From an uncultured Bacilli bacterium (GTDB taxonomy: Bacteria; Bacillota_I; Bacilli_A; RF39; UBA660), in the NCBI GenBank assembly GCA_934177545.1, contig CAKPPI010000001.1, positions 4,255 to 68,254 of the forward strand: DNA of 64,000 nt, written 5' to 3'. A model generated the notes under the pieces. It was not told the DNA's origin and made no database searches. It worked only from the letters and a program-made list of their open reading frames with translations. The position numbers and the translations under genes are program-made. Shown piece by piece: positions 16,961 through 64,000 of the stretch (position 1 is its first letter; every line of letters begins with the position of its first letter).

Positions 16961-18099
16961 AAGCCCCAACAGGTAGTAAGATAAAAGCTTATATGACACA
17001 AGCTGATTATGATAATGATAACTATCCAGAAACAGACTTTCATACTGATGCTTATAGGTCAAAAATAACTAGTATTATCACAAAAAAAGATAATATAGTA
17101 CCAGCAACAGCAGTTGAAAGTTGGGATATCTCAGAAGCAGGTGATGGTTCAGTAATGGCTTATGTAGAGAAAACTGATGAGGTATTGAAACCAGAACCAG
17201 CTAATGCAGAGATATATTCTAATAAAGGAGAAACAAAAGACATGTTAGAAACAATATACGCTACACCTCTTGAGGGAACCAATACTAATTATGCTTATAA
17301 GTTAACAATAGGTGGAAAGGGTGGAATTATTGCAAATGAAAATATGGTAGGTTATTTTTATAAGTTTAAAAGAGTAACATCAATAGATTTGTCATCCTTA
17401 GATACATCGGAAGTAACAAATATGGTTGGAATGTTTAGACACTGTATCAGTTTAACAAGTTTAGATGTAAGTAAGTTTGATACATCGCAAGTAACAGATA
17501 TGAGTAATATGTTTATTGGTTGTGAAAGTTTAACAAATCTAGATGTAAGTAGTTTTGCTACATTAGAAGTAACAGATATGAGTAATATGTTTTATGAGTG
17601 TAGCAGTTTAACAAGTTTAGATTTAAGAAACTTTGATACCTCAAAAGTGACAAATATGAGTTATATGTTTGATTACTGTATCAGTTTAACAAGTTTAGAT
17701 GTAAGTAAGTTTGATACATCTAACGTAACAGATATGAGTTGGATGTTTCGTAATTGTAGCAGTTTAACAAGTTTAGATTTAAGAAACTTTGATACCTCAA
17801 AAGTGACAAATATGAGTGAGATGTTTGGTTATTGTGAAAGTTTAACAAATCTAGATGTAAGTAGTTTTGTTACATTAGAAGTAACAGATATGAGAGGTAT
17901 GTTTAATAATTGTTGCAGTTTAACAAGTTTAGATTTAAGAAGCCTTGATACATCACAAGTAACAGATATGAGTGGTATGTTTGATATATGTAGTAACTTA
18001 ACCCAAATAACTGTTTCTAATAAATGGGTAGTAGGATCAAGTACCTTAACTGATAGAATGTTTTTTAACTGTGGAACTGATCATGTAACTACTATCTAG
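16354..18099 (+). CDS. secreted or surface protein with a conserved N-terminal domain and C-terminal DUF285-type leucine-rich repeats (Mycoplasma/BspA-like)
   Basis: Signal-anchor MNNKKQLIVSIGLTLVLVLMIVGISYAAF. Eight tandem 26-aa repeats fitting C-SLTSLD-S-FDTS-VT-MS-MF. The real start is ATG at 16354; the track ORF starts further upstream. Confidence 0.75.
   Translation: MNNKKQLIVSIGLTLVLVLMIVGISYAAFKFVGLGQRENTITTGAITMEYTESTNTISMTGALPTTDTTGKVRLTKGEYFDFTIKSSIQGNANINWEIAAEDITPSSAKKMAGKNIKLYLTKLDSTGAETQVMAPKVYNVSTSANTKTGRPSGVMSLATGTMSTSETTNYRLRMYVDEDYNPQGDGGGLSFSVKINAYGKVKEAPTGSKIKAYMTQADYDNDNYPETDFHTDAYRSKITSIITKKDNIVPATAVESWDISEAGDGSVMAYVEKTDEVLKPEPANAEIYSNKGETKDMLETIYATPLEGTNTNYAYKLTIGGKGGIIANENMVGYFYKFKRVTSIDLSSLDTSEVTNMVGMFRHCISLTSLDVSKFDTSQVTDMSNMFIGCESLTNLDVSSFATLEVTDMSNMFYECSSLTSLDLRNFDTSKVTNMSYMFDYCISLTSLDVSKFDTSNVTDMSWMFRNCSSLTSLDLRNFDTSKVTNMSEMFGYCESLTNLDVSSFVTLEVTDMRGMFNNCCSLTSLDLRSLDTSQVTDMSGMFDICSNLTQITVSNKWVVGSSTLTDRMFFNCGTDHVTTI
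17380..18010 (+). repeat. tandem array of about eight 78-bp (26-codon) DUF285-type repeats
   Basis: Long exact DNA matches between units, for example agtttaacaagtttagatttaagaaactttgatacctcaaaagtgacaaatatgagt appears twice. Confidence 0.8.
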
Positions 18100-36391: not shown

Positions 36392-36403
36392 GAAGTGTTA
36401 AAT

Positions 36404-38149
36404 ATGAAAACAATAGAAAATAATAGTTTAAGATTAACTGATAAAGATAAAGAAGTAACTCTATATGGTTGGGTACAAAAGAAACGTGACTTAGGAGGAG
36501 TATGCTTTATTGATCTTCGTGATAGAAGTGGTATAGTTCAATTAGTAGCTCGTGAAGGAGATACTTATACTCTTGCTAGTAATCTAAAGAATGAATCTGT
36601 CTTAAAAGTAGAAGGTATTGTTAAAGAAAGAGAATCTAAAAACAAAAATATAGCTACTGGAGATGTTGAAGTTGAATTAACTAATATTGAACTACTAAAT
36701 TCTTCAAGAGATTTACCTTTTGAAATAGCAAATGATACCACTGCCTTAGAAGATACTAGACTAAAGTATCGTTATCTTGATCTTAGAAGAAGTAACTTAA
36801 AAGACAATTTAATAACTCGTCATAAGATTACGCTTGCTATTAGAAACTTCTTAGATAGTAAAGGCTTTATTGAAGTAGAAACTCCAGTACTTTGTAAATC
36901 AACTCCAGAAGGAGCAAGAGACTATTTAGTACCTAGTAGAGTAAATAAAGGAAAGTTTTATGCTCTTCCTCAATCACCTCAATTATTTAAACAATTATTA
37001 ATGGTAGGTGGTATGGAAAAATACTTTCAAATAGCAAAGTGTTTTCGTGATGAAGACTTAAGAAGTGATAGACAACCAGAGTTTACGCAAGTCGATATGG
37101 AAATGAGTTTCGTTAATGAAGAAGATGTAATGAGTATGACTGAAAAGTTAATTGCTCATGTCTTTAAAGAAATTAAAGGAATAGAAATTGAATTACCACT
37201 TAAGAGAATGGAATATGATGATGCTATGAAGTATTATGGCTCTGATAAACCAGACTTAAGATTTGATATGAAAATAACTGATGTTAAAGATATATTTAAA
37301 GATAGTGAATTTAAAGTATTTTCAAATGCACTTGATGAGAAAAGTACTATCGCTTGTATAAAAGTAGATGATAATGCAACGTATTTTTCTAGAAAGAAAA
37401 CTGATGAGTTAACTGAATTTGTAAAAATTTATAAAGCAAAAGGTCTTCCATTTGTAAAATATGAAAATAAAGAGTTTACTGGTGGTATTAGTAAATTCTT
37501 AAGTGATAAAGAAAAAGAAGAGTTAGTTAAAAAACTAGAACTTAAAGATAATGATATCTTATTCTTTGGAGCTGATAACAAAATGATAGTTTATCAGACA
37601 TTAGGTGCTTTAAGATGTAAATTAGCTCGTGACTTAGACCTTATCAAAAAAGGTGATTACAAATTATTATGGGTTACTAAATTTCCATCATTTGAGTGGA
37701 GTGAAGAAGAAAATAGATTTGTTGCTTGTCATCATCCATTTACAGCACCACTTGACAGTGATGTAGATAAACTTTTAACTGATAAAGCACATTGCTACTC
37801 TAAAGCTTATGATATTGTTATTAATGGCTATGAAGCGGGTGGTGGATCTATTCGTATCCATAATGAAGAAGTTCAAGAGAAAATGTTTGAAGCTTTAGAA
37901 TTAACTAAAGAAGATATTGATGAGAAGTTTGGTTTCTTTGTTGAAGCTTTGAAATATGGAACACCACCTCATGGTGGACTTGCTATTGGACTAGATCGTC
38001 TTACTATGTTATTAACTGAAACTGATAACATTCGTGATGTAATAGCTTTTCCGAAGACTGCTAGTGCTAGTTGTTTGATGAGTGAAGCTCCTAATAAGGT
38101 TGCTAAAAAACAACTTGAAGATTTAGGTGTAAAATTAGAAAAAGAATAA
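36404..38149 (+). CDS. aspS: aspartyl-tRNA synthetase (bacterial type with GAD insertion), copy 1
   Basis: An OB-fold N-terminus, [20 protein letters not shown] and GGGSIRIH motifs. 582 aa from ATG 36404. Confidence 0.9.
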
Positions 38150-40552: not shown

Positions 40553-41638
40553 TTAATCTTTTGCTTTTTCTATTAGTAATTTATTACTTTTTAGTCTTTC
40601 ATTATCAGGTGATATTTCTAAAGCTTTATTAATATAGTCTAAAGATTCTTGATATTTTCCTTGATAAAAACAACTGATTGATAACAAATCATAGATAGTA
40701 TGATCAAAACTAAATGGTTCATTTATATAAGTCTTTTGATGAGTTGTTATCTTTAAGGCTTCCAAACAATTTTTTTCTACTTCTTGATAGTTTTCTAGAT
40801 TATATTCTAAAAGAGCAAGTTCTACAAAAGCATCCCTTAAATAAGGTGCTTCTTTTATAGCTTCTTTATACCACATTTTAGCTTCCTTATACCTTTCTAG
40901 ATTAGTATAACATCTAGCAATAAAACGCATAGAAGCAGCTCGCTCATCACGCCAAGTAGCAGATTTTAACGATAGATGTTTAATTAGTGTATCAATCGCT
41001 TTATTAAAGTAACCATGATACATATATTCTCTTCCAAGATAATGCATATTTCTATCATCTGTTGGATCTTCCTTGATTGATAATTCAAGGAGGGGAAGAT
41101 AACTACTTCTACTTTTAGTTTTATCAGGGTAATGATTTAGAGTGATTAAGTCAGTAGTAAGTTTAATCTCTTTCTTATCACCTATATAGGAAAGAACTTC
41201 ATGAACAGGATGAGTCCAAGTATAATCATTCCTAGAATGTATTTTTTCTGTATAGAAGTTTATAATAGGTTTATTATTTTTATCTAGACTCCAGTTATAG
41301 TTATAAGCAAGTCGAGTAGTGTTTTCTTGCCATACTTCTTCAAGACTACTTCGCCAACCTTTAAGAAAAACTTCATCTAAATCAGTACAAACACAAATAT
41401 CAGTATCTTTAGGAACTAAGTCTAGTGATAAATTCCTTGCTATATCAAATCTAAAAGGTTTAATTTTTTTACTTTTAACATTAACACCTAAATCTTTTAA
41501 TAATTTTACAGTCTTATCAGTACTACCAGTATCAAGAACAATAATTTCATCCGCTTCTTTCATAGATTCTACCCATCTTTTAACATGCTTTTCTTCATTT
41601 TTACTAATGGCATAGACAATAACTTTGTATTTATGCAT
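40553..41638 (-). CDS. family-2 glycosyltransferase fused to a C-terminal TPR-repeat domain
   Basis: N-terminal GT-A motif VIVYAISKNEE...DEIIVLDTGSTD. The C-terminus has about five TPR-like repeats. It starts 1 nt after the collagen-like gene's stop. Confidence 0.7.
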   Translation of the reverse strand: MHKYKVIVYAISKNEEKHVKRWVESMKEADEIIVLDTGSTDKTVKLLKDLGVNVKSKKIKPFRFDIARNLSLDLVPKDTDICVCTDLDEVFLKGWRSSLEEVWQENTTRLAYNYNWSLDKNNKPIINFYTEKIHSRNDYTWTHPVHEVLSYIGDKKEIKLTTDLITLNHYPDKTKSRSSYLPLLELSIKEDPTDDRNMHYLGREYMYHGYFNKAIDTLIKHLSLKSATWRDERAASMRFIARCYTNLERYKEAKMWYKEAIKEAPYLRDAFVELALLEYNLENYQEVEKNCLEALKITTHQKTYINEPFSFDHTIYDLLSISCFYQGKYQESLDYINKALEISPDNERLKSNKLLIEKAKD

Positions 41639-41639
41639 A

Positions 41640-42461
41640 TTATCCTAATTTAATAATACTAACCCTTGCTCCTGTATTACTATCAAGTGTTAAGGTAAGT
41701 CCTGTTGCTGAATTAGCTACAAAATCTATAACATCTCCTGTAGCTAGAGTAGTAATGATACTTCCTGTGAATAATTTATTTTCATTAGCAGGAGCATTTA
41801 AAGTAATAGAGCTGCTATCAATTTCTGTATTATTTTTTCTAACAAATACGGTTATATCTGCTTGTTGGGAACTAGAAGCATCTAATAAATAGTAGATTTG
41901 GTAAGTACCAGCATCTCCTACAGTAATAGCATTAGAAGTAGTATAAGTAGTATTTAAACTAGGACCATTTGTTTGTAAAGGAATTTGTCCATCTTGATTA
42001 GGAGTAAGCGTTACTGTTTCAGCACCTTCTGTGTATCTTTCACCGTATGCTGCTATTCCTCCAGTAGGTCCAGTAGGTCCAGTGGGTCCTGTAGGTCCAG
42101 TAGGACCAGTTGCTCCAGTTAAACCAATAGGACCAATATTACCCTGAGGTCCAGTTGGCCCTGTTGGCCCAGTAGGACCCGTAGCACCTGTAGCACCAGT
42201 TAAACCAATAGGACCAATATTACCTTGAGGCCCAGTAGGTCCAGTGGGTCCTATACTTCCTCTTGGAATAGAAAAGTCTAAGATGACATTCTCATTAGTT
42301 CCACTATTAGTAACCGAAGCATTACTACCAGCATCAGTTGTAGTAGTAGTTCCTACCGTAATAGTAGCAGCACCAGCGGGTCCAGTAGGTCCAGTGGGTC
42401 CTTGTACATAACAAAACTTACATCTTGTTTTTTCTTTATTTTCATTACAGTTATCAAACAT
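41640..42461 (-). CDS. collagen-like triple-helix repeat protein with a C-terminal globular (BclA/C1q-like) domain
   Basis: More than 40 G-X-Y triplets ([22 protein letters not shown]...). It contains an ~81-bp internal direct repeat. Local GC is elevated. Confidence 0.8.
42058..42255 (-). repeat. GXY collagen triplet repeat tract containing an ~81-bp direct duplication
   Basis: The unit ccagttaaaccaataggaccaatattacc(c/t)tgagg occurs twice about 81 bp apart. Confidence 0.7.
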
Positions 42462-42760
42462 GTTTTTTTCTCCTTTCCTTATAGTTTATGCGAGTGAAAT
42501 ATTAGTTTTTAATAAATTTGTCTTATATGCTTTAATTTGTGATGAATAAATAAAAAAAGAAGAAATTATTATTGGGACAATAATGTTATTTGGCAGTTTT
42601 AAATATTAGTGGAGATAATGATAGAGACAGAAGATTTATCTTTAAAGTATTCTACTAGCTATATTTAAATAAACTAGACATAAAAATAGTAATAAATTAA
42701 AGGAATCACTAATACTCATAATGATTCCTTTTTAATATCATTTTTATAATATACTTAGAA

Positions 42761-43657
42761 TTAGTTATGTAATAAGAAATTAATCATTTGCTTAACTTCA
42801 TCTTCAGTCAATGTTATATCTTCACCAACTAATCCAATAATAGGGTGAATCCCATCTTTTTTATGAAAGTCTGAACCGATTGTTGTCTTTAAATTGTGTT
42901 TTTTAGCAAAATCATTCCAACGGACTATATCATTATGTTTGATATCATTACGATCTATATAAATATAGTTCGTTTCTATTCCATCTGGTTGCATTTCCAT
43001 AACTAACTTTTCGATATCTTCTTCTGTTAGATTATCTTCATAACTATATGCAACAGGATGAGCTAAAATAACCTTGCCACCGGCTTTATGTATAAGAGAA
43101 GAGGCTTCTTTTGGGCTAATCGTTTCTTTTTTTACATAAGCAGGACAACCTTCATTCATAATAGTTTCGATAAATTCTCCCATTTGGGGAACATAACCAA
43201 AAACTTCCTTTAATTTAGCTTCATTTTCTTTGTTTCCTATTACATCATTGGCAATATGAGCTTTTGTTACGGCATCTATTTTGTCAAGTTCATCTACTGC
43301 TACTTTATATCCTAATTCTTCTAGCTTTTTAGCAACATTTCTCAAGTATATATGTCTAGCATTTCTTAGATTATATAATTTTTCTCTAAACTCTTTATTG
43401 TTTAAATCAAAGTTGTAACCTAAAACATGTATACCACATTTCTTGGTTTTAGTAGAGATCTCTACACCTGGTATTAACTTAATACCTTTTTCTTTAGCAT
43501 ATTCAAAAAGCTCTTCATTATAAGCCTCAATTGTATCGTGATCACATATCGCAATAGTACTTACTTTATTTGTTAAAGCCTCATCTATAACTTCTCTTGG
43601 TGTTAAAGCACCATCTGAACAGACAGTGTGAATATGTAAATCTATTAATTTTTCCAT
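42761..43657 (-). CDS. PHP-domain phosphoesterase (TrpH/YciV-like)
   Basis: The N-terminal LIDLHIHTVCSDGALTP motif, then AICDHDT and LAHP metal-binding motifs. 298 aa. Confidence 0.6.
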   Translation of the reverse strand: MEKLIDLHIHTVCSDGALTPREVIDEALTNKVSTIAICDHDTIEAYNEELFEYAKEKGIKLIPGVEISTKTKKCGIHVLGYNFDLNNKEFREKLYNLRNARHIYLRNVAKKLEELGYKVAVDELDKIDAVTKAHIANDVIGNKENEAKLKEVFGYVPQMGEFIETIMNEGCPAYVKKETISPKEASSLIHKAGGKVILAHPVAYSYEDNLTEEDIEKLVMEMQPDGIETNYIYIDRNDIKHNDIVRWNDFAKKHNLKTTIGSDFHKKDGIHPIIGLVGEDITLTEDEVKQMINFLLHN

Positions 43658-44601
43658 GAATTTATTCTCCTTTTATATAATTTTTGTAATGTTTTATTTT
43701 CAAATCTCCTTTTCACAGAATCAGGAGATACTGAATCAAGTATTTTAACGGTTTCTTTTTCTGTCAACGTAGAAGCAACTGTGCTTCTGGCATAATCAAG
43801 CTTTTGTTTTAAAGTTTCTTCAAAGTTAAATTCACTCATACTATATAAGAAATCTAGTGTGAAATTATAAGCTTCATCATCTTTTTGCCATTTTTTTCTT
43901 AGTGAATCTGGCAGTATAGGTAGATATGGTATAGTATTCGTTTTAACTGAATTAATAACTGTAAAAGGAACTTGATCTAATAGTTTACTTAATTCTGAAT
44001 ATTTTATAACATGAATATCAAGTGGTAGCATTTTTCTAGGCATTTTACCATTTTCCAAATCATTAATAGTTTCTTTAAAATCCTTAATTGTCTGAATTGG
44101 ATTTACATCCGATGTATGCATATCAAGGGAATCAAATGTTTCCTTCAATTCTTTTTTAGCATCATCTACTTTAGAATCTTCACAGACCATCCACATATCA
44201 ATATCAGGTAAGCGATTTATTATTTTTCTAGGTTTTAATCCTTTTTCTAATCTAGGACAAGGAATACAGATTTGTTTTAAATCTTCCATATAAGGACCAT
44301 TTATTGGTAGGCAACTTTCGCAAGGCCATTTTTTTAACTTTGATTTTAATATAGTATTTTTTAATTCCTCATTATAACGCAATTGTTCTTGTATAATGGG
44401 TAATTTTCCTTCAAAGTTTTTATCTAGTGTATAAAATGGATAGCCAGTTCCAAATGATCCACAATATCCTGTTGTAAACTGCATAACTTCATTAATAATA
44501 TCAATATTCTTTTTTATGTACATTTTTTTAATATTATTATCTTCAAAATTACTTCTTTCAAATTTATTGGACCCTTCTACTGCTTCTAAACAAATATTCA
44601 T
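43645..44601 (-). CDS. hypothetical protein with a Pol-beta-like nucleotidyltransferase signature and an inserted CxxC...CxxC zinc ribbon
   Basis: GYCGSFGTG (hG[GS]), RLPDIDMWMV (DhDh), LPLDIHVI (third acidic residue), CESC...CIPCPR. Start taken at the internal Met (MNICLEAV) preceded by a GAGGGGGG RBS. It overlaps the PHP gene by 13 nt. Confidence 0.45.
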   Translation of the reverse strand: MNICLEAVEGSNKFERSNFEDNNIKKMYIKKNIDIINEVMQFTTGYCGSFGTGYPFYTLDKNFEGKLPIIQEQLRYNEELKNTILKSKLKKWPCESCLPINGPYMEDLKQICIPCPRLEKGLKPRKIINRLPDIDMWMVCEDSKVDDAKKELKETFDSLDMHTSDVNPIQTIKDFKETINDLENGKMPRKMLPLDIHVIKYSELSKLLDQVPFTVINSVKTNTIPYLPILPDSLRKKWQKDDEAYNFTLDFLYSMSEFNFEETLKQKLDYARSTVASTLTEKETVKILDSVSPDSVKRRFENKTLQKLYKRRINSWKN

Positions 44602-44855
44602 ATAAATTCCCCCCTCATTTTTTAGAAAAGATAGCATGTGTAATAGCTATTTACAAAGATATCTTCTCTTTATAATTTACTACTTAATTTAATTTTGGGT
44701 ATTAATATATGTAAAAATGTGTTGATATTATATCATGAGATAATAACATAAGTCAATCTTATTTTGAGTAAAGTGACTGAATTTATGATTAACTTATGAT
44801 AATGTCTTAAGCGTTAGATATATTTCTTGTTCAATTCTAGATATAATTTTATGTT

Positions 44856-45260
44856 TTAGTTGCTGTTAGTATTTATTAAATTACTATAGTATTTGGTTTT
44901 ACCAGTTAAAACACAATCATGGAAATTTTGCTTTTTATAAATATAGTTAATACTGTCATCTATTTCTTTTTTCTTATTGTTAAGTTCCAAAAGTTTATCA
45001 TTTAATATTTCTTTTCGTCTAGGAATAGAAGTTTCACTTTCTAGACAAAGTAGCATATACTCCTTAATCTCTTTAATGCTCATTCCACATCTCTTAAGAC
45101 AAGCAAGAGTATCTAACCAGGCAAGATCTTTATCATCAAATACTCTATAGTTATTTTTATTTCTTTTAACATTAGGAACTAATCCTTCATTACACTAATA
45201 CTTTAAACTATCATAAGATAGATTTCTTATTCTACATACTTCTTTCATTGAATATAACAT
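44856..45260 (-). pseudogene. MerR-family transcriptional regulator interrupted by an in-frame TAG
   Basis: The translation MLYSMKEVCRIRNLSYDSLKY*CNEGLVP...KDLAWLDTLACLKRCGMSIKEIKEYM shows the MerR HTH with a TAG (45195-45197) where MerR proteins normally carry Tyr. Only the 75-aa C-terminal ORF remains. Confidence 0.55.
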
Positions 45261-45272
45261 TTTACCCCCCAC

Positions 45273-46115
45273 CTATTTTATTACTTTTTCTTTAACTAGC
45301 ATTGGAATAGTATGTAACATGTAAGTACATTGATCATTTAGCATACAGTAATTTTCTAATCTACTAAATGATTTGGTTATATCAGAAGATTTGTTATTAT
45401 CTTTATTTGCTGATAGTAGCTTCTTACTTAACTCTTCTTTAGAATAATCTGATTTGATCTTATTTTGTTTAAATAAATCTTCAATAGTAAGTCTTATTTG
45501 TTGCTTTGAGTCTACTTGATTAATCATCTCTTTCATTTTTAGTAGTTGTTCTTTTGTGTAATGGTACTTATTTTGAATACATCTATCAAAATAAGTTAGT
45601 AATAAATCAGTTTGACTATTGTCTAATAGTTCATAATCTAACATATATGAAACCATATCTAGTTTTTTATCAATCATATCGTATCTCTTATAAAAAGGAT
45701 CTTCATCATATTCTATTCTTGCAAAAGATCTTGCAAAAAAATCAAATATCGTATAACCAGAAGTGAATGGTTCTATGCCTAAATCAACCTTATAATTATG
45801 TAAGATGTAATCTGCTAACTCCAAGCCGAAATTTTGTGGATTAACAGCTAAATTACCAAATACAGTTTCATTTCTTTTATATATACTGTTTTCAAACGGA
45901 TCGGTATAAGTTTTTACATGATTAATATCAAAACTTTTCTCTAATAACTTAGTTTCTGATGCTAAAACAATAAGCTTCAATGATTTCAGAGCATCAACAT
46001 TAGTTCTTCTTGCTAAGTATATACCCAGCTCATTTAAATTTTCTAAATCTTTAGTAGTATCATTCAATATATGAATTCCACTTTCTACATAACAGTTCAT
46101 AATAACACCTCTCAT
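45273..46115 (-). CDS. hypothetical protein (280 aa), co-oriented upstream of the disrupted merR
   Basis: ORF only. No recognised motifs. Confidence 0.45.
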   Translation of the reverse strand: MRGVIMNCYVESGIHILNDTTKDLENLNELGIYLARRTNVDALKSLKLIVLASETKLLEKSFDINHVKTYTDPFENSIYKRNETVFGNLAVNPQNFGLELADYILHNYKVDLGIEPFTSGYTIFDFFARSFARIEYDEDPFYKRYDMIDKKLDMVSYMLDYELLDNSQTDLLLTYFDRCIQNKYHYTKEQLLKMKEMINQVDSKQQIRLTIEDLFKQNKIKSDYSKEELSKKLLSANKDNNKSSDITKSFSRLENYCMLNDQCTYMLHTIPMLVKEKVIK

Positions 46116-55249: not shown

Positions 55250-55558
55250 GTGATAACTAAAGAAATGCTAAAAGACTATGCTAGAAAGTTAATGTTTGAC
55301 ATGGATGATAATGAGTATGAAACCTTAGAAGATGAGTTTAAAACTATTCTTAAACAAATGGAACTTATCGAAAATATTCCTAATATAAAAAAGACAGAAC
55401 CATTATTTTATCCATATGTCTCATATGAAGCGAAGCTTAGATGTGACGAGATTAATGAAATGGAGATGCTTTCTGTTAATGAGGTGTTAGAAAATACAGA
55501 ACATCAAGTAAGAGATCAAGTAAAAGTACCAAGGGTGGTGGAAGCTGATGAATTATAG
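55250..55558 (+). CDS. gatC: Asp-tRNA(Asn)/Glu-tRNA(Gln) amidotransferase subunit C
   Basis: About 100 aa and acidic, immediately upstream of gatA. GTG start at 55250; the alternative is ATG at 55265. Confidence 0.8.
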   Translation: MITKEMLKDYARKLMFDMDDNEYETLEDEFKTILKQMELIENIPNIKKTEPLFYPYVSYEAKLRCDEINEMEMLSVNEVLENTEHQVRDQVKVPRVVEADEL

Positions 55559-56996
55559 AAAATGTTTAATTAGTGATTTAAGAGAAAATTTAGATGATGG
55601 TAGTATAACTAGTGAAGAACTATTTAATGAAGCAGTTAGTCTTGCTAATAAGTATCAGGATCCTTATAACTGTTTTGTAACTATCTGTGATAAGTTTAAG
55701 ATGAAGAAAAGAACTACGCCACTAGCAGGTATACCTTATGCTTTAAAAGATAATATTTCAACTAGTAATATTTTAACAACAGCATCTAGTAACATCTTAA
55801 AAAATTATGTACCAGTCTATGATGCGACAGTTTATAAGAAATTAAAGAATGCTGGAGCAGTATTAGTTGGAAAAACCGTTTTAGATGAACTTGCTATGGG
55901 TGGAACTGGAACAACTGGACATACTGGAATAGTTAGAAATCCTTATGACAAGACAAGAGAGATTGGTGGATCAAGTGCAGGAAGTGCTGCTGCAGTTGCT
56001 CTTGGAATTGTACCTTTTGCTATTGGAAGTGATACTGGTGACTCTATTAGAAAACCAGCTGCTTTTGGCGGAGTGGTTGGCTATAAACCAACATATGGTT
56101 TAATATCTCGTTATGGTCTATTTGCTTTTGCTTCAAGCCTTGATCATGTTGGTTGCTTTGCAAGAAGTGTTAAAGATGTCGCTTTAGTTACTAATACTAT
56201 TAAAGGATATGATCCTCATGATATGACTACTTATCAAGATGATAGTGATTTACTATCTGGTATCGATGAACCGTTAGCAGGTAAAAAGTTATTTTATATC
56301 AAAGAAATAGTAGATAGAAGCTTATATAAAGAAGACGATGATGAGTTGATGCAAGTATTAGATAACTTTTATTCACTTCTTGAAAGATTAAAAACTAGGG
56401 GAGCAGAAATAACAGAAGTATCCATTGATAAAGCGTTACTAGAAGCGATATATCCTACTTATATGACTATATCTTGTGCCGAAGCGACTAGTAATAACTC
56501 TAACTTAACAGGAATAGCTTTTGGAAATAGAGTAGCTAAAGATGATGTTAATAGTCTAATAACTGCTACTAGAACAGAAGGCTTCTCAGAACTTATTAAA
56601 AGACGTTTTGTCCTAGGTAGTTATATTTTACAAAAAGAAAATCAAGAGAAACTTTATCTAAATGCCTGTCGAGTTAGAAGATTATTAGTAGATAAATTAA
56701 CAAATCTTTTCAAAGAATATGATAGCTTAATCTTACCTTGTAGTGGTGGACCTGCTCCTAAGTTTGATGATGATAGTGACAAGCTAAGTGATAAATACCT
56801 ATTATTAGAAAACCATATGGCACTAGGTAACTTCGGAGGATTCCCATCAATTACTATCCCATCAGGATTTGTAAATAACTGTCCAATTGGTATTAACCTT
56901 ACTAGTGGAATAAAAGAAGATAAGAAAGTATTAAATATTGCTAATGAGATAGAAATGCTAACCGGTCTTAAAGGACAAATAGGAGGTGAAGAGTAA
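55548..56996 (+). CDS. gatA: amidotransferase subunit A (amidase signature family)
   Basis: GGSSAGSAAAVA amidase signature. 482 aa. Confidence 0.9.
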   Translation: MNYRKCLISDLRENLDDGSITSEELFNEAVSLANKYQDPYNCFVTICDKFKMKKRTTPLAGIPYALKDNISTSNILTTASSNILKNYVPVYDATVYKKLKNAGAVLVGKTVLDELAMGGTGTTGHTGIVRNPYDKTREIGGSSAGSAAAVALGIVPFAIGSDTGDSIRKPAAFGGVVGYKPTYGLISRYGLFAFASSLDHVGCFARSVKDVALVTNTIKGYDPHDMTTYQDDSDLLSGIDEPLAGKKLFYIKEIVDRSLYKEDDDELMQVLDNFYSLLERLKTRGAEITEVSIDKALLEAIYPTYMTISCAEATSNNSNLTGIAFGNRVAKDDVNSLITATRTEGFSELIKRRFVLGSYILQKENQEKLYLNACRVRRLLVDKLTNLFKEYDSLILPCSGGPAPKFDDDSDKLSDKYLLLENHMALGNFGGFPSITIPSGFVNNCPIGINLTSGIKEDKKVLNIANEIEMLTGLKGQIGGEE

Positions 56997-58423
56997 TGTA
57001 TGATGTAGTTATTGGACTTGAAGTACACTGTGAATTAGATACGTTATCTAAAAACTTTTCAAGTAGTGAAAATAGTTATACTAAGATTCCTAATATTCAC
57101 GTTTCACCAGTTGATTTAGGACTACCGGGAATATTACCTGTTGTAAATGAAAAAGCTTGTTATAATGCTTTAAGAACAGCGATGGCTCTTCACTGTGAAA
57201 ATCCTGATGAGATAATGTTTGATCGCAAGAACTATTTTTATCCCGACCTTCCTAAAGGCTACCAAATAACTCAAGTTACTAAACCAATGGGAAGAAACGG
57301 TTACTTAGATATATTAGTAGATGGTTCTATCAAAAGAGTATTAATTCATCAGTTACATCTAGAAGAAGATACAGCTAGTCTAGAGCATGATAAGAACTAT
57401 TCCCTAATAGATTATAACCGTAGTGGTATACCACTAATGGAAATAGTAACAGAACCATGTCTTACCAGTGCTCTTGAAGCAGTAACTTTTCTAGAAGACT
57501 TAAGAGATGTCTTCTTATATCTAGGAGTTAGTGAAGCAAAGACTGATAAAGGTCAGATGAGATGTGATGTTAATATCTCTTTAAAAGAAAAAGGTAGTGA
57601 TAAGCTTGGTACTAAAGTCGAGATGAAAAACATTAACTCATTCACAAGTGTCAAAGAAGCGATAGAATATGAAATAAAAAGACAAAGTGAAGCCTTGGCT
57701 AATGGCGAGAAGATAATTCAAGAGACAAGACGAATTGATGAGACGGGAAAAACTCACTCTATGCGTGAAAAAGTAGATGCCATTGATTATAAATACTTTG
57801 TCGATGCTAACTTACCACCAGTTAAAATAACGGATGCTAAGAAAGAAGAACTAAGAAGTTCTATTCCTAAATTAAAACTAGATAGAATTTTAACTTATCA
57901 AAAAGAACTAGGACTAGATTATTATGATGCTTCTATTATTGCTAAAGAAAGAGACCTAGCAGACTACTTTGAAGAGACTGTAAAAGATGTAAGCTTAGCT
58001 GTTAACTTTATAACAACTAGTATCTTATCAACTTTAAATAAACTAGAAATTACTATTGAAGAGTTAGTAGTAACTCCTTCAATGCTAAGTAGTTTAATAA
58101 ACTTAGTAAGTAGTGATAAGTTATCACTTGATCATGCTAAGAAAATACTTTATAAAGCAATAGAATTAAAAACTGATCCTATTAAATTAATAGAGAAAGA
58201 AAATTTGTCACAAATAAACGATAAAGATGAATTAATTAAATACATAAAAATAGAGTTTGATAAATATCCTAATCAAGTAGAACAATATATAAAAGAAGAT
58301 AATTTATCAGTTATTAATTTCTTTATGGGAAAAGTTATGTCATCTACTAAAAGACAAGCTAATCCTAATATGACAAGAGAATTAATCAAAGAAGAACTAG
58401 AAAGGATGAAGAAGAATGATTAA
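56996..58423 (+). CDS. gatB: amidotransferase subunit B
   Basis: MYDVVIGLEVHCEL N-terminus and a GatB/YqeY C-terminal domain. Confidence 0.9.
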   Translation: MYDVVIGLEVHCELDTLSKNFSSSENSYTKIPNIHVSPVDLGLPGILPVVNEKACYNALRTAMALHCENPDEIMFDRKNYFYPDLPKGYQITQVTKPMGRNGYLDILVDGSIKRVLIHQLHLEEDTASLEHDKNYSLIDYNRSGIPLMEIVTEPCLTSALEAVTFLEDLRDVFLYLGVSEAKTDKGQMRCDVNISLKEKGSDKLGTKVEMKNINSFTSVKEAIEYEIKRQSEALANGEKIIQETRRIDETGKTHSMREKVDAIDYKYFVDANLPPVKITDAKKEELRSSIPKLKLDRILTYQKELGLDYYDASIIAKERDLADYFEETVKDVSLAVNFITTSILSTLNKLEITIEELVVTPSMLSSLINLVSSDKLSLDHAKKILYKAIELKTDPIKLIEKENLSQINDKDELIKYIKIEFDKYPNQVEQYIKEDNLSVINFFMGKVMSSTKRQANPNMTRELIKEELERMKKND

Positions 58424-60161
58424 AAATATATATCGTGACTGCTATGCTGGTAGTCTTAGAGAAAAAGATATTGATAAAGAAGTAAAAGTAGCTGGTTTCA
58501 TTGAAAATATAAGAGACCATGGTGGAGTAATCTTTGTTGATTTAAGAGATTACTATGGAACACTACAATTAGTTAGTAATGATGATAAGATGTTTGATGA
58601 TTTAACAAGAGAGTCATCTGTTACAGTAACAGGAAAGATTCGTAAAAGAGATAGTGATGACTATAATGATCGAATTGAAACTGGTACTATTGAATTATTA
58701 GTTAGTTCTATAAAGGTACTTGGTAAGAGTAAGAATGTTTTACCATTTGAAGTTATGACTAGTAAAGATGTATCAGAAGATGTAAGACTAAAGTATCGTT
58801 ATCTAGATTTAAGAAATCCTAAAGTTAAACAATCTATTCTATTTAGAAATAAAGTTATTCACTTTTTAAGAAACTTAATGGAAAGTGAAGACTTTGTTGA
58901 ACTACAAACTCCAATCTTAACTTCATCATCTCCTGAAGGAGCAAGAGACTTTCTAGTACCTAGTAGAAAATATAAAGGAAAGTTTTATGCCCTACCACAA
59001 GCTCCTCAACAATTTAAACAACTACTAATGTGTGCTGGTTTTGATAAATACTATCAAATAGCACCATGCTTTAGAGATGAAGATGCAAGAAGTGACCGTG
59101 TTTATGGTGAATTCTATCAATTAGACTTTGAAATGGCTTTTTCAACTGAAGAAGATGTCCTAAGAATGGGTGAGAAAGTATTTTATGAAACATTTAGGGA
59201 GTTTGCTAAAGATAAAGATATATCAGAACCACCATTTATTAGATTAACTTATAAAGAAGCGATGGAAAAGTATGGTTCTGATAAACCAGATTTAAGAAAT
59301 CCTTTAGTTATAATTGATTTAACAGAAGAGTTTGAAGAGACAGAATTTCGTCCTTTTAGAGGTGTACCAGTTAAAGGAATAAAAGTAGAAAACTTAGCTA
59401 GTAAGAGTAATTCTTGGTTTAATGAGGTAGTTGATTATGCCAAAAGTATTGGTATGCCAGGAATTGGTTATTTAAAAGTAAATGAAGATTTATCATTTGC
59501 TGGTCCTATTGATAAGTTTTTAACTGAAGATGAACGTGAAGCTTTAATAGATAAAGCTGATCTTAAGAAAGATGATGTCTTATTCTTTATAGCAGATCGT
59601 AAAAAATCGCTAGAACTAGCTGGTTCTATTAGAATGGAGTTAGGTAGAAAACTTGATTTAATGGATCCTAATAAATATGTCTTTGCTATCATTCATGACT
59701 TTCCAATGTTTGAGTGGGATGAAGAAAATGAATGCTATACTTTCATGCATAATCCATTTAGTATGCCAAAAGATGGAATGAAAGGGCTTGATCAAAAAGT
59801 AGAAGACATTCTAGCTTATCAATTTGACTTTGTTTGTAATGGTGTAGAATTATCTAGTGGAGCAGTTAGAAACCATGACTTAGAAATCATGAAGAAAGTC
59901 TTTGCAATAGCAGGTTATGAGGAAGAAGAAATCGAAAAGAGATTTAAAGCTTTATATGAAGCTTTCCAATATGGAGCACCACCTCATGCTGGTATGGCCC
60001 CTGGACTTGATCGTATTCTAATGATGCTTCTAGATGAAGACTCTATTAGAGAAACAATCGCATTCCCAATGAGTGCTTCAGGAAGTGATATCTTAATGAA
60101 TGCTCCAAGTACTGTTACAGAACAACAATTAAGAGAAGTACATATCAAAGTAAGAGATTAG
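58416..60161 (+). CDS. aspS: aspartyl-tRNA synthetase, copy 2 (likely the non-discriminating AspRS, given operon context)
   Basis: Full-length bacterial-type AspRS with FRDEDARSDR and a GAD domain. It overlaps the gatB stop. Confidence 0.85.
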   Translation: MIKNIYRDCYAGSLREKDIDKEVKVAGFIENIRDHGGVIFVDLRDYYGTLQLVSNDDKMFDDLTRESSVTVTGKIRKRDSDDYNDRIETGTIELLVSSIKVLGKSKNVLPFEVMTSKDVSEDVRLKYRYLDLRNPKVKQSILFRNKVIHFLRNLMESEDFVELQTPILTSSSPEGARDFLVPSRKYKGKFYALPQAPQQFKQLLMCAGFDKYYQIAPCFRDEDARSDRVYGEFYQLDFEMAFSTEEDVLRMGEKVFYETFREFAKDKDISEPPFIRLTYKEAMEKYGSDKPDLRNPLVIIDLTEEFEETEFRPFRGVPVKGIKVENLASKSNSWFNEVVDYAKSIGMPGIGYLKVNEDLSFAGPIDKFLTEDEREALIDKADLKKDDVLFFIADRKKSLELAGSIRMELGRKLDLMDPNKYVFAIIHDFPMFEWDEENECYTFMHNPFSMPKDGMKGLDQKVEDILAYQFDFVCNGVELSSGAVRNHDLEIMKKVFAIAGYEEEEIEKRFKALYEAFQYGAPPHAGMAPGLDRILMMLLDEDSIRETIAFPMSASGSDILMNAPSTVTEQQLREVHIKVRD

Positions 60162-60270: not shown

Positions 60271-61060
60271 TAATTAAAGATAAGGAAGAGGTGATTACTA
60301 TGTATTTGTCAACCATAATGTCAAGTTTACAATTAGTTAACATGGGGGGGGCAATTTATATAGATTAATCACTTCTTTTTATCATGCATTAATAACGGGA
60401 TAGGACTAGTCTTATCTTGTTTTTTAGTGTAAATAAAATAGAAGGAGTGAATAAGAAAAATGAACAACAAGAAACAACTACTATTATCAATCGGACTTGT
60501 TTTAATACTAGTTCTAATGATAGTAGGAATCAGTTATGCAGCTTTTAAGTTTACTGGAACAGGTCAAAAAGCCAATACTATAACAACAGGTGCAATTACT
60601 ATGAAGTATACAGAGTCAACTAATACAATAAGTATGAATAATGCTCTACCAACAACTGATGCTACTGGGAAAGTAAGATTAACAGCTGGAGAATACTTTG
60701 ATTTTACTTTATCAGGTACAATTAAAGGATCAGAAAACATCAACTGGGAGATAGCAGCAGAAGATGTAACAACAGCATCTAGAAAGATAGATGGTAAATA
60801 TATAAAACTATATTTAACAAGTCTAGATGACACTGGTAATGAGAAAGAGGTAATGGTACCTAAAGTATATAAAACTGAATCAACAGAAAATACATATACT
60901 GGACGTCCTGCTAATATGATGAGTCTAGCTAAAGGAACAACATCTACAAGCTTCTCTACAAAATACCGTCTTAGAATGTATGTAGATGAAAGTTATAACC
61001 CGCAGGGAGATGGAGGAAACTTAGCATTTAGTATAAAGATAAATGCTTATGGTAAAACAG
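60271..61060 (+). repeat. copy 2 of the ~0.8 kb duplicated promoter/5'-CDS segment (G8 tract at 60344-60351)
   Basis: Near-identical to 16165..16960. The homopolymer length differs by one G. Confidence 0.85.
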
Positions 61061-62373
61061 GTGAAATGATGCTTTCTACAGTAGCAGAAGCACTACAAAG
61101 CAATGGACTAGGAGCAAATGGAGTATTTGATACAAGTGACCCAGAGCAGACATTTGTTACTGGAACAGGTCCTGATAACTATATTTGGTATAGTGGAAAA
61201 CTATGGAGAGCAGTATCAATAGATTCAACTGATAACTCTGTAAAATTAGTAACACAGTGGAATATATCAGCCTTACCATATAATGAAGAAAATAATTCTG
61301 AATTTAAAGGAAGCTATATGGAGCAGTGGTTGAATGATACTTCAGTAGATGGTTTCTTAGGAAACCTAAGAGAACCAGATAAATTTATTAAAACAGATAG
61401 TGTTTGGAATGCTACTATGACTAAGGAAACTACAAAGCCAGAGAAGACTACCATGGTAACAGATACTGTAGGTTTACTAAATTTTTATGAGTATACAATG
61501 AGTTACAAAAATGCTAAAGCTGAAACTGGCTATTTAAATAATGGTTTAGAGTGGTGGACGTTGACACCTTATAGTACGTCGAACGTCCGTTACGTCGAGG
61601 GCCGCGGTTACAGCAGCAGCTATAGTCCGGCGCATTCGGATGGCTCTCGCCCATCTATAAATCTAAAATCTGCTGTAAAAATTATAGACGGTGATGGAAC
61701 CAGTAATAATCCGTACAGGCTTCAAGGCGATAATGATAATCCAACAGGAGCATTGTTATCAACAAGATATAGTGGTGAATATATAAGTTTTGGAACCGGC
61801 GAAAATGATCTGTATCGAATAGTAAGCCATGAAAATGGAACTGGTACTAAAATAACAAGTGCTATACCTATAAAATATAGTGGTAGTTATAAAGAGCTTG
61901 CTTTTGGAAGTAATACAACATTTTCTAAAGATAATACAATAGGAACGTTCTTAAATAGTGATTATTTGACAAATGGTACCTATCTAACTAGTGACCAAGT
62001 AAGTATGATAGAAGATAATACAACATGGTATTTGGGAACTGTAGGATATGCTAGTTATAAATTAGCAAAATATCAAGATGCAACAGGTAGCAATCTAACA
62101 ACATCAACTACTACTGCTCAAATAGGACTACTAAGAGTAGGTGAATTAATGGCAGGACAATTTGACAAATATAATAATAATGTTAGTTATTGGACATTAA
62201 CACCTTATAGTACCTCGTACATCCGTGGCGTCAGCTACACCGGTGTCAACGGCGGCTTTCATCCGGCGAATTCGTACGGCTCTCGCCCATCTATGAATCT
62301 AAAATCTAATGTGATAATAACTGGTGGAAAAGGTACGGCTCGGGAACCATTCACTATAAAGTTAGGTAGCTAA
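60460..62373 (+). CDS. secreted or surface protein paralog with a distinct C-terminal region that carries two GC-rich motif repeats
   Basis: The N-terminal ~200 aa are near-identical to the 16354 protein. The C-terminus contains the motifs WWTLTPYSTSNVRYVEGRGYSSSYSPAHSDGSRPSINLKS and YWTLTPYSTSYIRGVSYTGVNGGFHPANSYGSRPSMNLKS. Confidence 0.75.
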   Translation: MNNKKQLLLSIGLVLILVLMIVGISYAAFKFTGTGQKANTITTGAITMKYTESTNTISMNNALPTTDATGKVRLTAGEYFDFTLSGTIKGSENINWEIAAEDVTTASRKIDGKYIKLYLTSLDDTGNEKEVMVPKVYKTESTENTYTGRPANMMSLAKGTTSTSFSTKYRLRMYVDESYNPQGDGGNLAFSIKINAYGKTGEMMLSTVAEALQSNGLGANGVFDTSDPEQTFVTGTGPDNYIWYSGKLWRAVSIDSTDNSVKLVTQWNISALPYNEENNSEFKGSYMEQWLNDTSVDGFLGNLREPDKFIKTDSVWNATMTKETTKPEKTTMVTDTVGLLNFYEYTMSYKNAKAETGYLNNGLEWWTLTPYSTSNVRYVEGRGYSSSYSPAHSDGSRPSINLKSAVKIIDGDGTSNNPYRLQGDNDNPTGALLSTRYSGEYISFGTGENDLYRIVSHENGTGTKITSAIPIKYSGSYKELAFGSNTTFSKDNTIGTFLNSDYLTNGTYLTSDQVSMIEDNTTWYLGTVGYASYKLAKYQDATGSNLTTSTTTAQIGLLRVGELMAGQFDKYNNNVSYWTLTPYSTSYIRGVSYTGVNGGFHPANSYGSRPSMNLKSNVIITGGKGTAREPFTIKLGS

Positions 62374-62474: not shown

Positions 62475-64000
62475 ATGAATATTAGAAAAATTAGTACTAA
62501 GAATTTAGTACGAATACTAGTAGTTTTAATTATTTTAATAGGTGGAATCTTTGCTAAGAAAACATTAACATCTTATGCTTTATTAGAAAGTAGTGAAGCA
62601 CCTAGTAAATTAGTTACTAGTACAGGTAATGTTATGTCTGATAGAGTAAGTCTTTTTGATGACTTAGATGGGGATGAAATTATTTCATTAGTACCTTTCT
62701 ATGGAATGGATGATAATGGTAATAAATATACTGTATATTGTCTTGAGAAAAGTAAAGACTTTGCTCCAAATCAGACAGTAACTAAAGTTAATACACCACT
62801 TGATGATGGATATACCTATATAATAAAAAATGGTTATCCTAATAAAAGCTTAACAGAAAATAATAAAAATGATAATTATTTAACGCAAATAGCAGTATGG
62901 CTCTATCAAGATAGATCAGCAGGTGTAAGTGATACTACTAATGGAGTGCTTACTGCTAATCAAAAAAGTTCAATTAAGAAAAGTAGTTATTATACTGTAA
63001 TTAATAATTTAGTAACAGGAGCGATGAATGCTAAAAACACTACTAATATTACTAATCCGACCTTTAGTGTAAGTAGTGGAACATTATCTACTGATAGTGA
63101 TAATACTTATCTAATCAGTAATGTCATGAGAATAACTTCTAATACTGATGAGTTTATTAACTATAAAGTAGTCGCTTCTAGTAGTGATATTTTAGCAAGT
63201 GATATAGAAATACTTGATGAAAATAATAATGTAATAACTACTAATAGTGCTATAGCTAAAGATAAAGGCTTTAAAATTAGAGTACCTTTAGCAAAGATAA
63301 AGAAAGCATCTAGTATAAATATTGATATTATCAATAACTATAAAGATTATAAGACCTATGGTTATGAACCACCAGAGGGTATGAAAGATACTATGCAAAA
63401 GTCATTTGTATCCTTGCTAGCTGCTAATGTAACATCTAAACAAATATCTACTAGTCTTAATATGCCAGTAGGAAGTATTACTATTAATAAAATAGATAGT
63501 ACTAATAATAACTTAGCTGGAGCTAATTTTACTATTAAGAGATTAGCAACTAATGAAATAGTAGATAGTTTTACTACAACAACTACAGCACATGTAACAT
63601 CTAACTTGTTACCAGGTAATTATGAAATTACCGAAACAGCTGCTCCTAGTGGTTATTATATAACAGATAAGACAACTAATATAACAATAACAAGTAATGC
63701 CTTAAATAAAACTAAAACAATAACTAATAGCCAAGCAGAAGTATCAATTAGAAAGATAGATAGTGTTAGTAAACAAGTAGTAAGTGGGGCAGTTTTGAAA
63801 ATAGTAAATAGTGCTAATCAAACAGTAAAAACTATTACTACTACAAATGACTATACTAAAATAACTGGTCTTTCACTTGGAACTTATAAAGTAGTAGAAG
63901 TAACTGCTCCTGATGGTTATACCGTAAATACTACGGCTAAAGAATTTACTTTAAGTAGTACTAATCCAAAGGTAACTCTAGATTATGCTGATCAACAAAA
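62475..64000 (+). CDS. thioester-domain (TED) adhesin with CnaB/SpaA-type isopeptide domains; the 3' end lies outside the window
   Basis: Signal or TM segment at the N-terminus. Cys in YCLEKSKDF plus TQIAVWLY (the TQxxxW thioester motif). Repeated prealbumin-like domains (ITINKIDSTNNNLAGANFTI...LLPGNYEITETAAPSGY). No stop before position 64000. Confidence 0.65.
   Translation, partial: MNIRKISTKNLVRILVVLIILIGGIFAKKTLTSYALLESSEAPSKLVTSTGNVMSDRVSLFDDLDGDEIISLVPFYGMDDNGNKYTVYCLEKSKDFAPNQTVTKVNTPLDDGYTYIIKNGYPNKSLTENNKNDNYLTQIAVWLYQDRSAGVSDTTNGVLTANQKSSIKKSSYYTVINNLVTGAMNAKNTTNITNPTFSVSSGTLSTDSDNTYLISNVMRITSNTDEFINYKVVASSSDILASDIEILDENNNVITTNSAIAKDKGFKIRVPLAKIKKASSINIDIINNYKDYKTYGYEPPEGMKDTMQKSFVSLLAANVTSKQISTSLNMPVGSITINKIDSTNNNLAGANFTIKRLATNEIVDSFTTTTTAHVTSNLLPGNYEITETAAPSGYYITDKTTNITITSNALNKTKTITNSQAEVSIRKIDSVSKQVVSGAVLKIVNSANQTVKTITTTNDYTKITGLSLGTYKVVEVTAPDGYTVNTTAKEFTLSSTNPKVTLDYADQQ

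Follow-up and report, generated by a model that had tools for sequence, protein, structure and literature searches.

Analysis of a 64-kb stretch of genomic DNA from an uncultured Bacilli bacterium (contig CAKPPI010000001.1; referred to below as the window) revealed two adjacent minus-strand genes, one encoding a collagen-like protein and the other a glycosyltransferase (GT), which together are probably an operon whose products build a glycosylated, collagen-like fibre on the surface of the endospore. The two open reading frames (ORFs) occupy the interval from 40,553 to 42,461 and encode proteins of 273 and 361 amino acids (aa), respectively. The closest precedent is the sgtA-bclA3 pair of Clostridioides difficile. 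The genes described here extend the BclA3/SgtA type of gene pair to a new host lineage that is uncultured, and the N-terminal architecture of the collagen-like protein is unlike that of the Bacillus or C. difficile proteins. An initial annotation of this locus had proposed a BclA-type protein with a co-transcribed GT. This reading was supported, and those of its elements that could be checked, namely, the C-terminal knob, the pairing with a GT, and the variation in triplet number, held.

The collagen-like protein is composed, in order, of a 20-residue N-terminus, 4 glycine-X-Y (GXY) triplets, a 35-residue module, 23 GXY triplets, and a globular end of 137 residues. The uninterrupted runs comprise 27 triplets in total (4 at residues 21 to 32 and 23 at residues 68 to 136), which corrects the annotated number of more than 40. 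Thr is found at the Y position in 17 of the 27 triplets, and 12 of the 27 are GPT. The triplet types GPT, GAT, and GLT are present and match the substrates of the C. difficile enzyme SgtA. Analysis of the protein sequence predicted the Pfam domain Collagen (PF01391) at residues 74 to 130 (E value, 3.9e-10). No other GXY run of at least five triplets was detected in any frame of the window, the antisense reading of the gene itself set aside, and the collagen feature therefore lies far beyond chance.

The C-terminal domain is BclA-like by sequence and by predicted fold. The Pfam family BclA_C (PF18573) matched residues 145 to 272 with 45.1 bits (cut-off, 38 bits), and among solved structures in the Protein Data Bank (PDB) a sequence match to BclA from Bacillus anthracis (PDB entry 1WCK) was obtained over residues 60 to 269 (E value, 2.6e-14). 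An exhaustive HMMER search with the globular end alone as the query yielded a family of 322 cluster representatives; in nearly all of these proteins, which differ in length, the domain is C-terminal. The AlphaFold2 (AF2) model of the knob, built from a 66-sequence alignment, had a mean predicted local distance difference test (pLDDT) score of 97.9. Searching the PDB with this model by Foldseek revealed B. anthracis BclA as all five best matches (2r6q, 1wck, 2z5w, 3tyj, and 3twi), with a template modelling (TM) score of 0.78 and an E value of about 1e-8. The spore proteins ExsFA/BxpB ranked next, followed by C1q-like and TNF-family domains. The annotated globular domain was thus confirmed at residues 137 to 273, and the suggested comparison with the BclA/C1q/TNF fold gave a positive result, with the BclA_C score above its threshold; the domain proved to be related to BclA and C1q.

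The second gene encodes a family 2 GT with a C-terminal TPR domain, in agreement with the annotation; Pfam searches identified GT2 (PF00535; E value, 1e-9) and TPR (PF07719; E value, 1e-14) domains. Comparison of 28 homologues with 48 to 85% identity revealed that a nucleotide-sugar motif (D36-T-G-S-x-D41) and a DxD motif (D86-x-D88) are invariant, which speaks in favour of a catalytically active GT-A domain. In sequence comparisons, this domain matched GmaR (residues 10 to 170; E value, 1e-6), the flagellin O-N-acetylglucosamine (O-GlcNAc) transferase from Listeria, and SunS, the sublancin S-glycosyltransferase (residues 10 to 224; E value, 2e-5). The AF2 model of the GT (pLDDT, 87.5) showed a full-length fold match to SunS/ThuS (E value, 4e-15; identity of 16 to 19% in the Foldseek alignments), followed by TPR proteins including O-GlcNAc transferase. 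Since GmaR and SunS/ThuS are its relatives of known structure, the enzyme appears to use a protein or peptide as its substrate. These relatives share a homologous GT-A domain with the window enzyme, and each of them likewise has helical repeats C-terminal to its catalytic part. Their acceptors are Ser/Thr of flagellin and Cys of glycocins, whereas the genomic partner here is a collagen-like protein. The last TPRs weakly matched the TPR domain with which collagen prolyl 4-hydroxylase binds its peptide substrate (E value, 4e-4; Pfam PF23558, E value, 0.006), a hint that the TPR groove may bind an extended GXY chain. A search for the GT family yielded 7,989 matches, the best 120 of which were all at least 68% identical. 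The plasmid-borne homologues all belong to spore-forming Bacillaceae.

The stop codon of the collagen-like gene and the start codon of the GT gene are separated by 1 nt (GGA TAA T ATG), exactly as annotated, and the AGGA ribosome-binding site of the GT gene is positioned within the 3' end of the collagen-like gene. The GT is translationally coupled to the collagen-like gene, and the arrangement suggests that the pair is co-transcribed. To place this arrangement in a wider context, other GT loci (designated by L numbers) were compared. A scan of species-representative genomes for the GT revealed 20 loci. Their hosts are metagenome-assembled genomes (MAGs) of uncultured gut "Bacilli," "Tenericutes," or unclassified bacteria, or "Clostridium sp. 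CAG:451," except for L019, a Clostridia MAG (GT 50% identical), and L020, a Paludibacter MAG. The "Clostridium sp. CAG:451" enzyme is 97% identical to the window GT. A collagen-like gene adjoins the GT gene in about 20 of 23 informative loci, including the Clostridia MAG, a Peribacillus plasmid, and a high-GC contig. It is located directly upstream of the GT gene in the window and in L001 to L006, L009 to L012, L014, L017 to L019, L021, L022, and L026 and directly downstream in L016 and L027; in three loci, three tandem collagen genes precede the GT gene. In seven related genomes of the same genus (GT identity, 78 to 99%), the pair was found at the same chromosomal position, aspS-uppP-ZIP-CmpB / GT-collagen. 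The proteins paired with the GT carry a BclA_C knob, other globular ends, or, in the sister species L005 and L006, none, and the globular domain of the Peribacillus plasmid protein is N-terminal. Because the GXY region is constant and the globular ends vary, the repeats are argued to be the substrate. The annotated linkage of a collagen-like gene and a GT gene, as in exosporium BclA loci, is therefore kept across many diverged loci.

Two of these loci show further features. L021 (MT838491.1; "Bacteriophage sp.," unverified) is a high-GC faecal-virome contig of 5.2 kb in which a GT2-TPR gene is immediately preceded by a collagen-like ORF. Its GT is 50% identical to the window enzyme, metabolic-looking genes follow, and the contig may be bacterial DNA and not phage. 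In L027 (11198 to 13345), the stop codon of a 186-aa collagen-like gene without a globular end lies 13 nt from the end of a convergent gene for a large serine recombinase. Beyond the recombinase gene, small unknown genes extend over about 8 kb, and the collagen-like gene might have been interrupted by an intervening element in the manner of skin or SPbeta.

Analysis of the region upstream of the collagen-like gene revealed a CATAnnnTA element. CATA...TA is the −10 box shared by the mother-cell sigma factors sigma-E and sigma-K (PMC3789822). In diverged loci whose flanks are otherwise unalignable, 11 promoter-proximal collagen genes and 2 lone GT genes have the element 18 to 34 nt before the start codon, far in excess of its background frequency of 0.055 per 90 nt. 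In the window, it occurs within 60 nt of the start in 2 of 51 genes, the other being hrcA, where it overlaps a sigma-A promoter. A sigma-70 promoter scan upstream of the collagen gene detected no more sites than were found in shuffled sequence. The bclA1-3 and sgtA genes of C. difficile belong to the sigma-K regulon (PMC3789822; bioRxiv 2025.06.24.661383). These sequence data suggest that a promoter of the sigma-E/sigma-K type probably drives transcription of the pair in the mother cell at a late stage of sporulation.

A signal peptide, a transmembrane segment, and an LPXTG motif are all absent from the collagen-like protein sequence, which fits assembly inside the mother cell. In contrast, the candidate vegetative adhesins of the same window carry N-terminal anchors. 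N-terminal hydrophobic anchors were observed in three large proteins encoded on the plus strand (16312 to 18099, 60460 to 62373, and 62475 to 64000). The anchored proteins are a DUF285/BspA-type LRR protein, a DUF6273 protein, and a thioester-domain and SpaA-fold adhesin, all candidate vegetative surface proteins.

Sporulation genes were detected in relatives of the host. In L026 (GT 71% identical), a collagen-GT-collagen(BclA_C) cluster is located at most 10 kb from spoVAC-spoVAD-spoVAEB and a spoIIAA-sigF-like gene pair. Many of these gut Bacilli MAGs encode SpoVAD with 70 to 95% identity, again within this compact cluster. Gene content predicts spore formation for the uncultured orders RF39 and ML615J-28 and for the walled families of RFN20 (PMC10868615), and the presence of mraY, uppP, and murC-like genes in the window indicates that the organism is walled. 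Sporulation of the host organism itself is inferred. The order of the compact cluster, as seen in L026 (14161 to 21086), L031 (462 to 3343), and L029 (1557 to 3343), is STAS (spoIIAA-like)-sigma factor (sigF-like)-spoVAC-spoVAD-spoVAEB-RNHCP-scpA-scpB. No spoIIAB-like gene was found between the STAS and sigma factor genes of these loci, which agrees with the reported loss of spoIIAB in RF39.

Comparison with characterized systems revealed both shared and distinct features. SgtA from C. difficile (358 aa; GT-A domain, residues 1 to 260; four TPRs, residues 262 to 358) is encoded beside bclA3 and adds beta-O-GlcNAc from UDP-GlcNAc to Thr of GPT and GAT triplets in peptides such as TGATGLIGPTGATGA (PMC7157674). 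In C. difficile, the two genes form a sigma-K-dependent operon. In both systems, a GPT/GAT collagen-like protein is paired with an enzyme of about 360 aa with a GT-A domain and C-terminal TPRs (361 aa here and 358 aa in C. difficile), and a sigma-K-type promoter element, here a candidate, is present. Thr at the Y position, the acceptor in the case of SgtA, is the predicted acceptor here. The systems differ in gene order, the collagen gene being first here, in the size of the collagen-like protein (273 aa here and 661 to 678 aa for BclA3), and in the host, which is an uncultured Bacilli lineage and not Clostridium. The N-terminal domains are unrelated; here, this part consists of 20 residues with three Cys and the 35-aa module. 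BclA from B. anthracis and B. cereus (1WCK; PF18573) shares the Pfam family of the knob and is the best structural match, and both proteins have a GPT-rich triple helix with a triplet number that varies between strains and no signal peptide. The knobs, however, are 16 to 17% identical in the Foldseek alignments, the collagen region here is split by the 35-aa module, and the protein is devoid of an exosporium leader or ExsFA-binding N-terminal motif. Its N-terminus is unlike the LIGPTLPPIPP-type motif of the Bacillus exosporium leader. Thus, the annotated likeness to exosporium BclA loci stood for the knob and the GT pairing but not for the gene order, which is reversed compared to C. difficile, or for the Bacillus leader.

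On this basis, the following sequence of events is proposed. In the mother cell, the leaderless 273-aa chain would trimerise via its BclA/C1q-like knob and thereby nucleate a short triple helix of 23 GXY triplets. With a triple-helix rise of about 0.28 nm per residue (PMC12357932), the 69 residues correspond to a helix of about 20 nm. The GT, translated by coupling, would be a cytoplasmic enzyme whose TPR domain might hold the collagen-like chain while the GT-A domain moves a sugar onto Thr at the Y position of GPT, GAT, and GLT triplets. By analogy with SgtA and GmaR, this sugar would most likely be GlcNAc from UDP-GlcNAc. Glycosylated Thr at the Y position can stabilise collagen helices that are free of hydroxyproline, and the enzyme would therefore have a structural role too. 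The glycosylated trimer could then be fixed to the outermost spore layer via the Cys-containing N-terminus. The Cys residues may staple the trimer or may link it to a Cys-rich outer spore layer or to an appendage, for which L-BclA provides a precedent (PMC11362473).

Several observations weigh against an endospore fibre. No unambiguous sporulation gene was found in the 64-kb window; a SpoVE/FtsW homologue is ambiguous, with 430.7 bits for the spoVE model (cut-off, 448.8 bits). Searching with SpoVAD from L026 revealed matches in other MAGs (CALVKE01, CAYRWX01, and CAYRDW01), none of which was placed in the assembly of this locus, and in a machine-learning study RFN20 MAGs were scored as non-sporulating (PMC12536801). 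A clearly conserved −35 element was not found among the loci, so that sigma-E and sigma-K are indistinguishable, and it is possible to read CATAnnnTA as the AT-rich −10 box of a sigma-A promoter. None of the NCBIfam exosporium-leader models matched the collagen-like protein. The GT is present without an adjoining collagen gene in three loci (L020, L024/25, and L028). The likeness to SgtA (CD630_33500) is drawn from published length, domain order, and context, and orthology would follow by analogy. Finally, the GT family has phage members, and phage collagen-like fibres carry the C1q-like fold at their tips just as commonly; because spore and phage proteins share the knob fold, the fold alone cannot separate one from the other.

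The last observations are relevant to a phage or prophage remnant. On that reading, the knob would be the C1q-like receptor-binding tip of a tail-fibre or minor-tail protein, and the GT, a phage-borne enzyme, would glycosylate virion proteins. In phage collagen-like tail fibres, too, GXY repeats occur together with a jelly-roll knob at the C-terminus, and the knob model matched many phage and giant-virus collagen-repeat proteins with TM scores of 0.82 to 0.88. PHROG tail-fibre and "collagen like minor tail" families matched as well (phrog_30509; residues 20 to 265; E value, 6e-21), the GT matched phrog_13126 (E value, 9e-112) with homologues in jumbo phages and an Actinomycetia phage, and large serine recombinases are encoded near the cluster in two relatives. 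The PHROG score, however, comes mostly from the GXY repeats, and a tblastn search with the knob gave no match in 50,697 phage records. No structural, packaging, lysis, or integrase genes are located around the pair; the neighbours are housekeeping genes (hisS, aspS, uppP, and hrcA-grpE-dnaK), the chromosomal position is shared by the seven genomes mentioned above, and the pair has its own sporulation-type promoter element and a terminator upstream. A phage origin is thus considered very improbable.

A role as a collagen-like adhesin on the surface of vegetative cells, comparable to Scl1/Scl2 or Lcl and unrelated to sporulation, is also quite unlikely; the protein would then be glycosylated in the cytoplasm and leave the cell through an unrecognised export pathway. 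GmaR demonstrates that GT2-TPR enzymes can serve an exported vegetative protein, flagellin, sporulation of the host is itself a deduction, and the NCBIfam models SclA, SclB, and Lcl matched the repeat region (E values, 5e-14 to 1e-9). These matches reached 37 to 52 bits, far below the cut-offs of 325 to 500 bits, and besides the signal peptide and LPXTG motif, a cell-wall-binding domain is absent. Furthermore, RFN20 and ML615J-28 are reported to be without sortases, the conserved CATAnnnTA is not a vegetative promoter signature, and the characterized BclA_C members are spore proteins. An endospore location is also assumed if the protein forms the fibrillum at the tip of an endospore appendage, comparable to L-BclA or F-BclA, and not a nap attached to the spore itself; the N-terminal Cys would then dock by a disulfide onto a pilus subunit. 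L-BclA and F-BclA are BclA paralogues with a C1q-like knob and without the exosporium leader, and a GT gene is located near f-bclA. L-BclA has an N-terminal Cys-Cys motif, thought to couple to Ena3A (PMC11362473), and the protein described here is likewise leaderless, with Cys5, Cys14, and Cys17, while relatives have CC or CNCCC. In contrast, no Ena-like gene (DUF3992/DUF4183) was seen beside the pair in the window or in the loci with Pfam-labelled neighbours, the N-termini are dissimilar, the helix is far shorter, and the Cys residues might just as well hold the trimer together or attach it to a Cys-rich coat layer. An appendage tip is therefore regarded as a rather unlikely form of the endospore fibre.

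A more far-reaching interpretation can be offered only tentatively and is, taken as a whole, doubtful. It combines three proposals: that the pair and its mother-cell promoter element mark endospores with a glycosylated collagen nap in uncultured gut Bacilli with reduced genomes (the CAG-451 group and relatives, once "Tenericutes"); that the N-terminal Cys motif of about 20 residues, the short helix, and the 35-aa module form an attachment device not described for BclA, which would replace the Bacillus leader and the N-terminal domain of C. difficile; and that the TPR domain recognises the unfolded GXY chain as in prolyl 4-hydroxylase. If the pair does encode an endospore fibre, it provides sequence-level support for spores in abundant uncultured Bacilli of the human gut, together with a picture of the spore surface, and bears on host-to-host transmission and on possible ways of enriching these organisms for culture, such as ethanol or heat selection. 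The coupling of GT2-TPR genes to collagen-like genes with any globular domain would generalise the SgtA-BclA3 relation beyond C. difficile, and many natural enzyme/substrate pairs are offered for making glycosylated bacterial collagens. Current concepts remain unchanged; a known system is extended to new hosts.

Coordinates of the features of the collagen-like gene, the GT gene, and their upstream region in the window
Feature	Position	Strand	Basis or remark
Collagen-like BclA-type gene, 273 aa	41640..42461	-	ORF list, Pfam, PDB sequence search
N-terminal 20 residues, hydrophilic; Cys5, Cys14, and Cys17 immediately precede the first collagen run	42402..42461	-	proposed trimer staple or disulfide anchor
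First collagen run, 4 GXY triplets, residues 21 to 32	42366..42401	-	sequence read
35-aa non-collagen module interrupting the helix, residues 33 to 67	42261..42365	-	conserved in nearly all related proteins
Second collagen run, 23 GXY triplets, residues 68 to 136, Thr at Y in 15	42054..42260	-	predicted O-glycosylation sites
Tandem repeat inside the collagen run, period of 81 nt, 27-aa unit, 2.3 copies	42066..42248	-	Tandem Repeats Finder (TRF), 82% matches
C-terminal globular domain, residues 137 to 273, BclA_C/C1q/TNF-like jelly-roll, presumed trimerisation knob	41643..42053	-	Pfam PF18573, AF2, Foldseek
GT2 and TPR protein glycosyltransferase gene, 361 aa, SgtA-like	40553..41638	-	ORF list, Pfam, sequence and structure comparison
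GT-A catalytic domain, residues ~5 to 175, LDTGSTD (35 to 41), DxD D86-L-D88	41114..41626	-	conservation in 28 homologues, GmaR/SunS matches
C-terminal TPR domain, residues ~190 to 360, nine helices, proposed collagen-chain binding site	40559..41071	-	Pfam TPR families, AF2 helices
Ribosome-binding site AGGAG of the collagen-like gene	42470..42474	-	read in sequence
CATAAACTA, candidate −10 box of a mother-cell sporulation sigma factor (sigma-E/sigma-K type)	42482..42490	-	starts 29 nt upstream of the ATG
Terminator-like hairpin after the upstream PHP gene	42699..42731	-	13-bp stem, then T-rich tail; separates the PHP gene from the collagen/GT unit

The N-terminal Cys motif recurs, as CxxC, KCKPxC, CC, or CNCCC, in about 18 GT-linked collagen-like proteins. 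The 35-aa module matched no Pfam family. Searching the PDB with this module revealed only summed weak matches to designed "Pizza" propellers (E value of about 15 for each stretch), which were judged spurious. In the paralogues of L009, L010, L012, L014, L018, and L026, a second conserved module of about 50 aa (TSVSILGSY...GDSYLV..DLYVW...W.NVG) is positioned between the collagen runs in one or several copies. The collagen-like genes of these loci also encode a distinct C-terminal domain that ends in ...IIIEYLGR.

The annotated 81-bp direct duplication was confirmed by the TRF period, yet it is imperfect. The two 27-aa units are identical at 26 of 27 positions in the protein and at 67 of 81 positions in the DNA, which indicates that the duplication is not recent. 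The gene was also found to be GC rich, as annotated, with 38.8% GC compared to 28.7% for the window; the GXY runs reach 52 to 67%. This increase is due to the Gly, Pro, and Thr codons of the repeat runs, a coding effect that need not mean foreign origin. The GT gene and the flanking genes have the composition of the genome, the excess is confined to the GXY runs, and a foreign origin as its cause was rejected. Comparison of alleles with ends that are 96 to 99% identical revealed 3, 10, 11, 23, or 24 triplets in the main run and protein lengths of 213, 234, 237, 273, and 276 aa. The predicted strain variation in triplet number was borne out by these near-identical alleles, and the differences fit a strain-variable fibre length, to which the collapse of repeats in short-read assemblies could contribute. 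Several contigs of related loci end exactly within the repeats.

Upstream of the pair, a block of minus-strand genes (42761 to 46115) comprises a PHP gene, a gene for a 330-aa protein, and ORFs of 75 aa and 280 aa. The PHP phosphoesterase gene (RNase RNM/pAp-phosphatase-like) overlaps the gene for the 330-aa protein by 13 nt, and a GS...DxD nucleotidyltransferase-like motif was seen by eye in the latter protein. The 330-, 75-, and 280-aa proteins had no Pfam or PADLOC match, and the NCBIfam search gave a weak, sub-threshold NmlR match for the 75-aa ORF only. All three ORFs are missing from strain L002 (GT 98% identical). These neighbours were considered as part of the system and rejected; they were not tied to the pair because PADLOC, Pfam, and NCBIfam provided no assignment. 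Elsewhere in the window, two aspartyl-tRNA synthetase genes were found on the plus strand (36395 to 38149 and 58416 to 60161), the second directly after gatC-gatA-gatB (55250 to 58423). The presence of two aspartyl-tRNA synthetases and gatCAB suggests that Asn-tRNA is formed by transamidation. A gene for a hybrid histidine kinase (609 aa), followed by a gene for a 258-aa protein with a C-terminal receiver domain, is located at 7804 to 10406 on the plus strand.

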